Assembly: GCA_050173015.1 (NCBI GenBank)
Contig: JBFXLE010000001.1
Span: 160,001 to 224,000, forward strand
Length of the DNA: 64,000 nt
DNA from: Calditrichaceae bacterium
Lineage (GTDB): Bacteria > Calditrichota > Calditrichia > Calditrichales > JBFXGD01
Direction: 5' to 3'
How positions within the stretch are numbered: position 1 is the first letter of the stretch; every line of letters starts with the position of its first letter. The notes below the pieces were generated by a model. It had not been told where the DNA came from and searched no databases. It saw only the letters and a program-made list of their open reading frames with translations. The position numbers and the translations under genes are program-made. Of the stretch, positions 1-4,203 are shown piece after piece.

Positions 1-36
1 CCTTTTGTTGCAAGAGTGATAAATTAATTTCTGGTT

Positions 37-480
37 TTAGAAGGGAAGATCATCCGATTCATGTCCATCGTCCGCGGACGGTTTCTCTGAAACCTTGCTG
101 TCATCCGAAGCAGGTTCATCCTGATATGTGGATTCACTATCACCTTTTGAGCCCAGAAGCTGCAGGTTAAGGGCAATAATCTCGGTTTTGTACTTTTTTT
201 GGCCTTGCTGGTCTTCCCAACTGCTTGTTTGCAGGCGCCCTTCCAGATAAACTAATTTACCCTTTTTTAAATACTCACCGACAAATTCAGCCGTTTTCCC
301 AAAAGTAACGATGTTGTGCCATTCGGTTTTATCCGTCCATGAACCTTCGGCATCCTTTTGGCCGTGATTTGTGGCAACAGAAAAGCTCGCGATTGCAGTT
401 CCGCCGGGCGAATACCGCATATCAGGGTCTTGGCCAAGGCGACCGATGATAATCGCTTTGTTCACAGTTCCTCGTGACAT
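37..480 (-). CDS. ssb: Single-stranded DNA-binding protein
   Basis: VNKAIIIGRLGQDP OB-fold start, TEWHNIV, acidic C-terminal tail DDLPF; GGAGG RBS. Confidence 0.97.
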   Translation of the reverse strand: MSRGTVNKAIIIGRLGQDPDMRYSPGGTAIASFSVATNHGQKDAEGSWTDKTEWHNIVTFGKTAEFVGEYLKKGKLVYLEGRLQTSSWEDQQGQKKYKTEIIALNLQLLGSKGDSESTYQDEPASDDSKVSEKPSADDGHESDDLPF

Positions 481-524
481 GAGTCCTCCAATGTTGGTTT
501 AAATTTGATAGATAGGTTATTTAG

Positions 525-567
525 AAAAATAGCCTCAGAACAGAATAAGACAAGTTCAGAGGCTATT
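525..567 (-). terminator. Intrinsic terminator-like hairpin downstream of the peptide array
   Basis: Minus strand AATAGCCTC-TGAAC...GTTC-TGAGGCTATT followed by TTT; lies between the last peptide gene and ssb. Confidence 0.65.
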
Positions 568-632
568 AAAGTTAAAAAAATTATCAAAAAATACAAGTTA
601 AAATATTTTAATTGACATTTACTTTCCGATCC

Positions 633-788
633 TTAAGGTTTCGGGCGCGGAGGCGGAGGTAAAGGAACAATAGTGGCGAATTCAGCGCCGGATCTTGGGC
701 TTGCATCCGTAGTTGCCGTACTCAGTATGGTCATAAAAATGGCCGCTGCGAAAACGAAGGTTACTATTATTGCTGCAATCTTTTTCAT
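633..788 (-). CDS. 51-aa signal-peptide-bearing, C-terminally proline-rich peptide, copy 1
   Basis: AGGAG-N7-ATG; MKK + hydrophobic core, ends VPLPPPPRPKP-stop; differs from copy 2 only by synonymous changes. Confidence 0.85.
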   Translation of the reverse strand: MKKIAAIIVTFVFAAAIFMTILSTATTDASPRSGAEFATIVPLPPPPRPKP

Positions 789-840
789 GTGATAACTCCT
801 TAAGACAGTGTTGTTGTAATTCATTCAATAAACCGTTTGA

Positions 841-996
841 TTATGGTTTTGGGCGCGGAGGCGGAGGTAAAGGAACAATAGTGGCAAATTCAGCGCCGGA
901 TCTTGGGCTTGCATCCGTAGTTGCTGTACTCAGTATGGTCATAAAAATGGCCGCTGCGAAAACAAAGGTTACTATAATTGCTGCAATCTTTTTCAT
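841..996 (-). CDS. 51-aa proline-rich peptide, copy 2 (protein identical to copy 1)
   Basis: Same AGGAG RBS; 6 nucleotide differences from copy 1, all at third codon positions. Confidence 0.85.
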   Translation of the reverse strand: MKKIAAIIVTFVFAAAIFMTILSTATTDASPRSGAEFATIVPLPPPPRPKP

Positions 997-1048
997 GTGA
1001 TAACTCCTTAATACAGTGTTGTTGTAATTCATTCAATGAACCGTTTGA

Positions 1049-1204
1049 TTATGGTTTTGGGCGCGGAGGCGGAGGTAAAGGAACAATAGTGGCGAATTCA
1101 GCGCCGGATTTTGGGCTTCCGTTTGTTGATGCTACGTCCACAACCGTGAAAACGATTGCTGCCGCAAATACCAATGCGACAATGAGGGAGGCCAACTTTT
1201 TCAT
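1049..1204 (-). CDS. 51-aa proline-rich peptide, copy 3 (diverged N-terminus)
   Basis: AGGAG RBS; MKKLASLIVALVFAAAIVFTVVDVASTNG-SPKSGAEFATIVPLPPPPRPKP. Confidence 0.85.
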   Translation of the reverse strand: MKKLASLIVALVFAAAIVFTVVDVASTNGSPKSGAEFATIVPLPPPPRPKP

Positions 1205-1300
1205 GTGATAACTCCTTTGTTGGGGGTGTGATTTGTATTTATGAAAAGAAAAGTAATTCCGTGAATAGGGGGCTGATAAACAGAAATAGTATGTCATGGA

Positions 1301-1660
1301 TCAGATCTTTCTTACAGCAATTTTGTAATTAAAAGATCCATCTAAAAATTGGGGGCTTCCGTGCGGGTAACAGGTTTAATTGAATAAATTAACTGTTATT
1401 TGAATCATCTCTGAATATTATCAGATCTTCCATACAGCAGTTCTGTAATTTAAAGATCCATCTAAAAATTGGGGGCTTCCGTGCGGGTAACAGGTTTAAT
1501 TGAATAAATTACCTGTTATTAGAATCGTCTCTGATTATTATCAGATCTTCCATACAGCAGTTCTGTAATTTAAAGATCCATCTAAAATTTTAAGGCTTCC
1601 GTGCGGTGAACAGGTTTAATTGAATAATTTACCTGTTAATTGAATCGTCGCTGATTATTA
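1301..1660. repeat. Three tandem 120-bp non-coding repeats, each with two inverted repeats
   Basis: Units 1301-1420, 1421-1540 and 1541-1660 align directly; each has GATCTT..AAGATC and AACAGGT-N15-ACCTGTT dyads (one mismatch in the first unit). Confidence 0.95.
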
Positions 1661-1847
1661 AATGAGTAGGACTAACCGGGATAATACTGCAAATCCAGGT
1701 TCTGTTGTCATGAAATTCAATGATACTGTATCTTTCAGGAAATTGGTTCTGAAGAATTTGGCGGATATCTGAGACGCATGAAAATGTCTGAACGATCAGA
1801 AAAAAAAGTGATATGGCAAATATAATAGGTTTTAGCAGTTCCCGCAT
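1629..1847 (-). CDS. Small hypothetical exported or lipoprotein-like protein (72 aa)
   Basis: GGAG RBS 6 nt before ATG; hydrophobic N-terminus ending TFSC; 3' end runs into the 120-bp repeat. Confidence 0.5.
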   Translation of the reverse strand: MRELLKPIIFAISLFFLIVQTFSCVSDIRQILQNQFPERYSIIEFHDNRTWICSIIPVSPTHLIISDDSINR

Positions 1848-1963
1848 CCCTGTCTCCAGTTGCTTAACGAGAACCTTCCGTGGTTGGATTTGACTTCCCT
1901 GGTGAGCTCAATATGAGCAGTAAAAGTCGAACAGTACGTGAGTCGACATAAATGATTTATAAG

Positions 1964-1991
1964 AATATAATTAATACATGTGAAAATGCAA
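1964..1991 (-). promoter_or_regulatory. Putative sigma70 promoter for the peptide unit
   Basis: Minus strand TTGCAT-N16-TATATT in an AT-rich intergenic region. Confidence 0.45.
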
Positions 1992-2130
1992 TAATTAATA
2001 TCTATATTATTGACATTTTAGTCACTTCCCATAAGCGCATTTAATTTAATTTTTTTATACCGCGGTTAAAACTTTGTTATAAAATTAATATTTTGCTAAA
2101 TTTAAGTCTTTGATCGGATACTACAGGAAA

Positions 2131-2631
2131 ATGGATCTATCTGTGAAAAATAATGAGAATATCTTGGCACAAAGGATTTTAATCACAGGTTTTACGCTGT
2201 TGTCGGTCTGGATGCTCATGTTATCTTTTGCCCCGATGTTAATGAACAGCGGTTCTTATGCGGCGCAGTACGCGGCGACCATCGTATATTTTATGACGGA
2301 TCCTGTTTGTCATCAGCTGCCGGAACGAAGTCTGTTTATTTCAGGAATACCCATGCCCGTGTGCGCGCGTTGCTATTTTATATATCTGGGTGGGTGGACG
2401 ACATTCCTGATCCCTGTTTTTAGCGGGAAAATCAATTTTTGGCGTTACAGAGTATATTTGATCATGGGGATAATTATTTTAGCGGAATTTGTATCTGAAA
2501 AAACCGGTCTTTACCAAAATTTGGCCGGGATACGGATGATCGCGGGATTCTTATTGGGAATACTGATATTCAGATTAATTATTGAAGCATTAAATTTGAA
2601 TGAACAAAGAGGGACAGAGGAAAATGGATAA
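2131..2631 (+). CDS. DUF2085-type membrane protein
   Basis: VCHQLPERSL...PVCARC motif with several TM segments; start approximate. Confidence 0.8.
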   Translation: MDLSVKNNENILAQRILITGFTLLSVWMLMLSFAPMLMNSGSYAAQYAATIVYFMTDPVCHQLPERSLFISGIPMPVCARCYFIYLGGWTTFLIPVFSGKINFWRYRVYLIMGIIILAEFVSEKTGLYQNLAGIRMIAGFLLGILIFRLIIEALNLNEQRGTEENG

Positions 2632-3118
2632 CAGGATTCTATACCAGGGAGCGGTGCTTGGCGGTACCGTGGCGGCTCTGACCGACGCTTTGCCGCTGCT
2701 AAATATTATTAATTGTCTTTGTTGTTTGGGAATTATATCAGGCGGGGTGGTGGCAGTCCTTTTTTACCGTAAAACGGCAGAACCCGAATACAGGGATCTC
2801 AATACGCCTTCCACGGTGCAGCTTGGGTTGATGGCCGGTCTGTTCGGCGCATTTATCTCCTTTGGACTGCAATATATCGTGTTTAAAATAATGGGAAACT
2901 GGCAGATAGAATTGCTGACAAATATGTTTGAAAATTTGGATGAAGTACCGGCTTTATGGGAAAATCTATATGAAGAAATTCAGAAGGAAGAATACCAGGG
3001 TTTTGCGGGAATGGCCATACTCATCCGCTCACTGATTATATTTCCTGTATTTTCTCTGATAGGCGCACTGATTACAAAGCGTTTTATGGGAAGAAAACAG
3101 GAGTCATCGGGTAGTTAA
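2624..3118 (+). CDS. Hypothetical membrane protein with a CLCC motif
   Basis: About 4 hydrophobic segments; overlaps the upstream stop (coupled); GAGG RBS. Confidence 0.75.
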   Translation: MDNRILYQGAVLGGTVAALTDALPLLNIINCLCCLGIISGGVVAVLFYRKTAEPEYRDLNTPSTVQLGLMAGLFGAFISFGLQYIVFKIMGNWQIELLTNMFENLDEVPALWENLYEEIQKEEYQGFAGMAILIRSLIIFPVFSLIGALITKRFMGRKQESSGS

Positions 3119-3126
3119 GAAAGTTT

Positions 3127-4203
3127 CTATTTTTCTGTCGCGACCTCTTCCAGGCGTTCAGAATGATAGGCAAGCCTTAATCCTTCAATCAACTCGTAGA
3201 TCTCACCTTCCATTACCCGGTCCAGCTTGTATAAAGTTAAACCGATGCGGTGGTCAGTAACGCGACCCTGAGGAAAATTGTAGGTTCTGATTTTAGCGCT
3301 TCTGTCACCTGAGCCTACCATGGATTTTCTTTGCGCGGCAATGGTACTGTTATGTTCGGAGATTGCTTGATCCAGTAAGCGGCTGCGAAGCACTTTAAGA
3401 GCTTTTGTTTTGTTTTTTAACTGAGATTTCTCGTCCTGGCAGGAAACCACAATTCCCGTAGGAACATGGGTGATGCGTACGGCGGAATCGGTAGTGTTGA
3501 CACTTTGTCCGCCCGGCCCGCTTGATCTGAAAACATCAATTCTCAGTTCATTGGGGTCAATTTCAATGTCAACTTCCTCCGCCTCGGGCAAAACAACAAC
3601 CGAAACAGCGGATGTATGAACCCGGCCCTGGGTTTCTGTGTCCGGAACACGTTGCACCCGATGCACACCGCTTTCAAACTTGAGTGTCCCATAGGTGCTG
3701 TCTCCCTCAATCGAGAAAATGATTTCCTTAAATCCGCCTCTTTCTGAAGGATTGGAATTCATAATTTCAATTTTCAGTCCATTGGCTTCACAAAATTTAC
3801 TATACATTCGGTAAAGATCGCCGGCAAATATAGCGGCTTCATCGCCACCGGTGCCGGCCCTGATTTCCATAATGGCATTTTTGTGGTCATCAGGATCCTT
3901 TGGAATAAGAAGCATTTTTAATTTTTCTTCGAATTGCTCAATTTGTTCAGACAAATCTTCGAGCTCCGCCTCCGCGAGCTCAATGAGTTCCGGGTCGCTT
4001 TCGCCGGAAATAATACTCTGATTGCCTTCATAATTGTTGAGAACAATTAAGTATGGATCACCGACATCCAGAATTTTTGTAAGTTCCCGATGTTCTCTGG
4101 CGAGCTCTTTGTACCGCGTTTGATCATTATGGATATCAGGATCAGAAAGCTGAATATTCAGCTTTTCGAATCTTTCTTTTATTTTAAGAATTTTATCTTT
4201 CAT
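3127..4203 (-). CDS. prfA: Peptide chain release factor 1
   Basis: GGQ motif (SGPGGQSVN), RVQRVPDTE with the PxT tripeptide of RF1. Confidence 0.97.

Follow-up and report, generated by a model that had tools for sequence, protein, structure and literature searches.

Two tandem repeats of different period lie side by side in a 64,000-nucleotide (nt) stretch of DNA from a Calditrichaceae bacterium (the window, to which all coordinates refer; its own 4.34-Mb genome is G000), and they raise the question of whether such neighbours work together. The locus, at 525–1991 on the minus strand, holds three copies of a 120-nt unit followed by three copies of a 208-nt unit that encodes a small peptide. 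An earlier note on this DNA, made from the sequence alone, had read the whole as a functionally coupled RNA and peptide module, such as a signalling cassette or a toxin/antitoxin-like pair. Comparison with relatives revealed a small-peptide operon with a conserved core that is real and previously undescribed; the coupled module is not supported as a general partnership of the 120-nt unit and the peptides. With moderate confidence, we read the locus as an operon for Sec-targeted or membrane peptides, amplified by tandem duplication and probably under CsrA-type translational control.

Organization of the locus

Read along the minus strand, the locus runs from a promoter through a leader, a 72-amino-acid (aa) open reading frame (ORF), three 120-nt units, a 95-nt spacer and three 208-nt peptide genes to a terminator:

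1964–1991, minus strand: promoter TTGCAT-N16-TATATT, read directly from the sequence
1848–1963, minus strand: leader (5' untranslated region) of ~116 nt with four GGA motifs (first G at 1898, 1879, 1857 and 1849)
1872–1885, minus strand: leader hairpin with a 4-base-pair (bp) stem, AACC/GGTT, and the 6-nt loop ACGGAA; its partner GGA lies 19 nt upstream, at 1898–1896
1629–1847, minus strand: small ORF, 72 aa, with a hydrophobic helix at the N-terminus
1540–1659, minus strand: 120-nt unit R1, its first 30 nt belonging to the small ORF (3' end and stop codon)
1420–1539, minus strand: 120-nt unit R2, non-coding
1300–1419, minus strand: 120-nt unit R3, non-coding, with the third GGA motif lost
1205–1299, minus strand: spacer ahead of peptide gene 1, with a conserved ACGGAA (1262–1257) and the ribosome-binding site AAAGGAG
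1049–1204, minus strand: peptide gene 1 (the divergent one), 51 aa
841–996, minus strand: peptide gene 2, 51 aa, its product identical to that of gene 3
633–788, minus strand: peptide gene 3, 51 aa
525–567, minus strand: intrinsic terminator with a stem of 9 + 4 pairs, a 12-nt loop and a T-run (hairpin at 528–567)

The earlier note had described these co-oriented elements between the promoter and the terminator, and all of them were found as it stated; it was also right that the unit consists of small genes and repeats only and sits amid housekeeping genes. Its two adjacent triplications were recovered both by repeat comparison and by Tandem Repeats Finder, the 208-nt copies at 633–840, 841–1048 (96%) and 1049–1256 (67%) and the 120-nt copies at 1300–1419, 1420–1539 (93%) and 1540–1659 (86%). 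Each 208-nt copy carries an AAGGAG ribosome-binding site ahead of its 51-aa ORF (ORF starts at 788, 996 and 1204), and neither repeat occurs elsewhere in G000. A folding energy of −26.7 kcal/mol (z = −4.05) was obtained for the terminator hairpin and T-run, which none of 200 shuffled sequences matched. Generic scans had passed over both ends of the operon: the promoter was not listed because its first hexamer fits the consensus at only three of six positions, and the hairpin at 528–567 was missed because of its 12-nt loop.

An assembly artefact, which the earlier note had also thought unlikely, is indeed unlikely, since independently assembled relatives carry two units (the congener G001) and four units (L082, a near-identical metagenome contig). 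Contigs from independent public runs bridge the unit junctions 1419/1420 (run X1) and 1539/1540 (runs X2 and X5), and none of them covers the entire 120-nt array. Run X1 also yielded a contig of lower depth (12.5 versus ~42) with 21 other letters that fuses 1217 straight to 1420; it represents a related strain or species of the same sample, with a different arrangement of spacer and units.

A family of small peptides amplified in tandem

All 16 nucleotide differences between G000 and G001 in peptide gene 3 are synonymous, and the 15 differences in peptide gene 1 affect 11 codons synonymously and three non-synonymously. In the small ORF, the 39 differences are distributed as 4, 9 and 26 over codon positions 1, 2 and 3. 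These substitution patterns indicate that the peptide genes are real and under purifying selection, and that the small ORF is under purifying selection as well.

Aligning 35 members of the peptide family, which range from 51 to 62 aa, revealed a common plan. The N-terminus is best conserved and consists of MKK and ~20 hydrophobic residues with an invariant Phe, most members having an A-x-A-like triplet at about residue 18–20; a variable linker of 10–14 residues leads to the motif Y/F-A-T/S-I-x-P-x-P-P-P, followed by a variable, often lysine-rich tail. The PPP or PPPP run is almost invariant, and in this genus the ORF ends in a proline two residues past it. By eye, we take the N-terminus for a putative Sec signal or membrane anchor, which would precede a short peptide bearing the proline motif. 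The G049 members terminate in K-G-C.

Database searches place the family outside described ones. Pfam returned no family at E ≤ 1 for two peptides and two small ORFs; a sub-threshold match to PF25184 ('YxzE-like putative bacteriocin') reached 28.1 bits against a cut-off of 40 in one of five members scanned, and 14.7 bits in a second. The ESM Atlas named no family for the peptide or the small ORF, whose best feature scores (0.80 and 0.78, respectively) are no better than chance. A set of 5.8 billion proteins contains 38 members of the peptide family, and the four of these for which source names are shown are all 'hypothetical protein' of Calditrichota; an exhaustive profile search of 1.84 billion proteins gave 32 representatives. 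The peptides thus form a previously undescribed small-protein family of ~30–40 sequence clusters, limited to Calditrichia, which annotation pipelines label 'hypothetical' or miss.

The number of peptide genes varies from one (genus g5, G004, G007) through three (the window) to four (G002), and further tandem arrays occur in G013 (~3), G017 (at least two), G049 (at least three) and G048 (three). In the window, the peptide gene has been amplified in tandem to give the 208-nt triplication, and several other lineages have similar arrays. The members in family f6, which are more distant, are also in tandem (L062 in G049, 1–620; L064 in G048, 1276–1919). The G048 array has a different neighbourhood, flanked by genes for a GTPase and a sensor kinase.

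An operon core conserved across Calditrichia

Of 86 genomes of the phylum, 17 were positive in a profile search for the peptide. Apart from the window's own genome, likewise positive, the peptide is present in family f1 in 1/1 genome, in f4 in 1/1, in f2 in 9/10 and in f6 in 5/10; the same search did not find it in f3 (0/26), f7 (0/4), f8 (0/16) or f5 (0/17). Using tblastn with the window's proteins, we recovered the order prfA, peptide gene or genes, ssb in loci L007–L012, L014, L015 and L045–L048, and a peptide gene followed by ssb in L006, L049, L061, L071 and L074. The operon was not found in f3, where G010 has prfA, 370 nt without a gene and then ssb, and G003 has a different neighbourhood.

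The signals at either end and the small ORF recur with the peptides. A promoter of the form TTGC[ATC]T-N15-19-TA.A[TA]T stands ahead of homologous leaders in 10 distinct sequences, and likewise in L012 and L082; it is almost invariant among G000, G001 and L082. The leader is kept in G001 over 1907–1848, and the portion before it has a 10-nt indel. Ahead of the peptides, L012, L011, L013 and L062 have an ORF of ~47–73 aa whose product has a hydrophobic helix at its N-terminus and shares the motif F/Y-P-x-x-Y. A GC-rich hairpin with a T-run follows the last peptide gene in eight of nine loci (L006 has merely a 34-nt gap), and the window's terminator is nearly identical in G001. The locus is therefore a lineage-specific small-gene operon of Calditrichia (Calditrichota), located in most relatives between prfA and ssb. 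Of the single module that had been proposed, the promoter, leader, small ORF, tandem peptide genes and terminator are kept together across several Calditrichia families, and the 120-nt repeat drops out.

Two features of the flanks accompany this arrangement. Genes for two membrane proteins, DUF2085 and DUF4199 (2110–3118, plus strand), separate prfA from the operon only in this genus (G000, G001 and L082); in other genera prfA is directly before the operon promoter. On the side of ssb, a conserved T-T-T-G-T-A-T-T-T box (575–600, minus strand; equivalents in L005, L011, L012, L014 and L015) lies 20–40 nt upstream of the terminator hairpin, and a similar box precedes ssb in G010, which is without peptide genes. 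This box may be a promoter or operator element of ssb; if so, the ssb mRNA would begin with the hairpin that also serves as terminator.

The 120-nt units are confined to one genus

A blastn search of 40 relatives with the 120-nt unit matched G001 only, all remaining rows being at most 36 nt long at E ≥ 0.009, and a pattern scan of metagenome contigs gave 41 stretches, with full 120-nt units (four) only in L082. The array thus comprises two units in G001, three in G000 and four in L082; in other genera, the first peptide gene begins ~20–85 nt after the small ORF. Because it is found only in the window's genus, the 120-nt unit is not a general partner of the peptides, whose family spans 17 of 86 genomes of the phylum. 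Functional coupling between repeat and peptides, the centre of the earlier proposal, does not hold up in this comparison: checked for co-occurrence across relatives, the two repeat types are distributed independently, the outcome that the earlier note itself had named as counting against coupling. For genome scanning this is a caution that adjacent tandem repeats need not be coupled, and that relatives can separate a conserved core from a lineage-specific addition.

By a consensus scan, no minus-strand promoter-like or terminator-like site lies within 1300–1659. A search of 1–4000, including the leader and the 120-nt unit, against Rfam gave best scores of 16.6–19.9 bits against gathering scores of 39.8–75, which is chance level. 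No significant similarity was detected when the unit was aligned locally with the leader and spacer, the small ORF, the peptide genes and the sequence downstream (z −0.3 to 1.9), nor any significant complementarity to the peptide genes, the leader or the spacer. A 10-mer shared by the unit and peptide gene 1 was considered and set aside as not significant.

A coding role, suggested by the equivalence of 120 nt to 40 codons, was also rejected. With 119 nt, the second unit of L082 shows that the array is not coding, and a 14-codon mini-ORF lacks a conserved ATG. In the frame of the small ORF, R2 and R3 contain one stop each and R1 contains two.

Part of the array nevertheless looks constrained. 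Unit 2 of G001 is 87.5–95.8% identical to the G000 units, as compared to 64–76% at third codon positions of six flanking genes, and at least one unit per array is therefore slower to change than silent sites. Moreover, the most diverged unit (G001 unit 1) keeps all three A-N-GGA motifs while N changes. We regard the array as genus-specific, non-coding and variable in copy number, with at least a part that appears constrained; its role is uncertain and possibly regulatory. Most likely, the units are not a separate RNA gene and would tune CsrA control or transcript stability.

GGA motifs and possible CsrA-type control

The sections of a published account of CsrA that deal with its binding sites (PMC7652899) give the SELEX (systematic ligand evolution by exponential enrichment) consensus and report that GGA lies mostly in 6-nt loops on stems of at most 4 bp. 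The same sections describe CsrA as bridging dual sites 10–63 nt apart, with an optimum of ~18 nt, and give for glgC an arrangement of one hairpin site and one site at the ribosome-binding sequence (PMC7652899). Set beside these sections, the leader of the operon has the geometry of a CsrA target, with GGA in a hairpin loop and a second GGA within 10–63 nt (PMC7652899).

Relatives share much of this geometry. The 6-nt loop, of the form A[C/T]GGA[A/C], sits on a perfect 4-bp stem in 8 of 10 leaders, and in all 10 an upstream GGA lies 18–21 nt from the GGA of the hairpin. The stem reads CTGA/TCAG in f2 and AACC/GGTT in this genus, so that all four pairs differ. The leader in f4 has two GGA motifs 19 nt apart, and in f6 the locus L062 has a GGA-rich leader and a hairpin with GGA in its loop ahead of the first peptide gene. 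In the window, the GGA motifs at 1857 and 1849 fall at the ribosome-binding site and the start codon of the small ORF. G000 encodes csrA (PF02599, 86.5 bits); FliW and flagellin were not found in that genome.

The operon thereby resembles CsrA-repressed leaders such as that of E. coli glgC in having GGA in a short hairpin loop of the 5' leader, in the distance to a second GGA (18–21 nt here against the published optimum of ~18 given in those sections; PMC7652899), in the further GGA at the ribosome-binding site and in the presence of csrA in the genome. It differs from them in that the control is putative, the regulated genes are tiny peptide genes, and in this genus the hexamer is repeated as a tandem array inside the operon. 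The hexamer ACGGAA occurs six times on the sense strand of 525–1991 and not at all on the antisense strand, with 0.52 expected; one site lies in the leader, one in each 120-nt unit, one in the spacer and one in peptide gene 1. Six or more copies per 1467 nt are reached at only three loci of the genome. We put CsrA-type translational control of the operon at roughly even odds.

The 120-nt array also invites comparison with sponge RNAs of the CsrB/RsmZ type, with which it shares a repeated A-N-GGA motif (8 per 360 nt on the sense strand, none antisense). Unlike them, it lacks a promoter or terminator of its own by the consensus scan, its predicted folds put most motifs outside hairpin loops, and it is confined to one genus. 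As a sponge signature, ANGGA density does not single out the locus, which is not exceptional in this respect.

Among the papers listed by literature searches, none treated small RNAs, CsrA or small proteins of Caldithrix or Calditrichaeota. The operon offers a testable candidate CsrA target in a phylum without studied post-transcriptional control. If the GGA modules bind CsrA, the strain-varying number of 120-nt units would be a natural case in which repeat copy number tunes a regulator's grip.

Weighing the explanations

The explanation that we favour would work as follows. From its own promoter to its intrinsic terminator, the operon would express a ~70-aa one-helix protein and then one to four tandem peptides of 51–62 aa. 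The peptides would be exported by Sec, most members having an A-x-A-like site at about residue 20, and would act as abundant envelope or secreted peptides whose dose depends on the number of genes. CsrA would bind the leader hairpin, the GGA 18–21 nt upstream and the ribosome-binding sites that contain GGA, and each 120-nt unit would add three A-N-GGA motifs, including ACGGAA, and so tune control or transcript stability.

A number of observations weigh against this explanation. The evidence for CsrA is the geometry of motifs only, and that geometry has gaps: the leader stem retains three of four pairs in G001 and two of four in G021, stems come in just two forms and so record a single compensatory event, and G002 has csrA and a leader without the twin GGA. 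The composite of hairpin and twin motif is not very specific, occurring 18 times genome-wide as compared to seven in a reversed-sequence control; three of the six ACGGAA copies stem from the 120-nt triplication itself; and 126 other 400-nt windows of the genome have at least eight ANGGA, the top ones being mostly coding. The presence of csrA is uninformative, because almost every genome of the phylum has it (77 of 86, against 17 of 86 for the peptide family). Among the nine copies of the 120-nt unit, none of 29 predicted pairs shows a compensatory change, the fold z of the unit is only −1.8 in sense and −2.0 in antisense, and G001 unit 1 is just 78.5–79.3% identical to the G000 units, near third-position identity. 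Genus g5 and L014 lack the small ORF. Sec cleavage was read by eye from the alignment, with the A-x-A site degenerate in this genus, and a single transcript from promoter to terminator is something that we infer.

Two further explanations concern the array itself. One, which we think unlikely, is that the transcript would be a dual-function mRNA, in which leader, spacer and a variable number of 120-nt units form a built-in CsrA-binding platform besides the coding of peptides; in a non-flagellated phylum without FliW, unit number (2, 3 or 4) would then tune the CsrA gating of peptide output or the titration of CsrA by an abundant transcript. The other is that the array is a neutral minisatellite, a copy by slippage or unequal crossover of the small ORF's 3' end and spacer, with incidental GGA motifs. 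The varying unit number in close relatives and the restriction to one genus fit such an origin, as do the lack of an Rfam match, of compensatory pairs and of a strong fold on either strand, and the start of the first unit within the small ORF; the adjoining peptide genes show that the locus duplicates readily. The identity of G001 unit 2, far above that of third codon positions, and the three motifs kept in G001 unit 1 speak against neutrality, and on balance we consider the minisatellite possible, if somewhat doubtful. It is very unlikely, by contrast, that the 120-nt units are RNA genes acting with the peptides in a type I toxin-antitoxin-like pair or a signalling cassette. The idea has some appeal, in that both repeat types lie in one co-oriented unit and the peptides are small, hydrophobic and in tandem, as at several type I toxin loci; the Ldr and Ibs arrays likewise encode short single-helix peptides in direct repeats of a few hundred bases. 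Yet peptides occur without 120-nt units in every other genus examined, and the units have neither a promoter-like or terminator-like site of their own nor any significant similarity or complementarity to the leader, the spacer or the peptide genes. A consensus scan found no plus-strand promoter-like site in 633–1299, and no gene for an antisense RNA was seen. The toxin/antitoxin-like pair suggested earlier is also a poor fit to the strong ribosome-binding sites, the conserved proline motif, the purifying selection, a housekeeping-gene position kept across families and genes that are amplified, not lost.

Two remaining explanations assign other functions to the peptide ORFs. That they encode Sec-exported, proline-rich bacteriocin-like peptides, with variable antimicrobial cores in tandem and the small ORF as a membrane immunity protein, strikes us as quite unlikely. 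Like PF25184 and Sec-dependent class II bacteriocins, the peptides are small, with an MKK-plus-hydrophobic N-terminus, a short polar tail and a weak profile match; the N-terminus is better conserved than the region that follows, the tail is often cationic, tandem arrays occur in several lineages, and a small membrane ORF lies immediately upstream. The profile score, however, stays under the cut-off and concerns few members, there is no Pfam match at cut-off, and in the loci read there are no transporter or processing genes nearby, nor export or immunity genes recognizable by homology. The fixed position between prfA and ssb across families would be unusual for accessory bacteriocin loci, genus g5 keeps the peptide without the small ORF, and the proline motif is conserved, not diversifying. 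Least of all would we expect the ORFs to be regulatory, with poly-proline stalling of the ribosome (sensing EF-P or protein export) controlling ssb or the operon and the products themselves unimportant, an idea that is highly improbable in our view. The nearly invariant proline run, the stop that follows one proline two residues past it in this genus and the location immediately upstream of ssb are what it would account for. Arrest peptides of the SecM, MifM and VemP type are single ORFs directly upstream of, and translationally coupled to, the gene for a Sec or YidC component, unlike the present genes, which occur in up to four copies with a strong ribosome-binding site each and are followed by a strong terminator (in eight of nine loci) and then ssb. 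The hydrophobic segment ends only ~22–25 residues before the proline run and would still sit in the ribosome tunnel at the stall. Conservation of the entire N-terminal helix at the protein level, with changes purely or mostly synonymous, and the different genomic context of the G048 array argue against stalling as well.

Other GGA-containing elements in the genome

Elsewhere, G000 has non-coding tandem arrays of ~9–13 units of 21 nt. One is on contig C11 (C11:118–517, minus strand; L079, 278–519), and others lie at C18:68048–68237, C1:259922–260100, C31:231–395, C25:609–796 and C42:333–395 of G000 and at three places in G001. Their unit has GAAGGA or GAAGGGA between short complementary flanks, and the C11 copy ends in a small hairpin and a T-run; the arrays have no Rfam match. 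In a genome with csrA, and with no FliW or flagellin found, they would be better candidates for CsrB/RsmZ-type CsrA sponges than the 120-nt units. Alternatively, they may be a dispersed satellite repeat, several copies being at contig ends.

The 5' region of a TonB-dependent-receptor-like gene (G000 C20:17740–17800, plus strand) has 15 nt in common with the leader's first GGA site, after which comes a 4-bp hairpin whose loop is AAGGAG. The site may belong to a member of the same regulon, or the resemblance may be due to chance.

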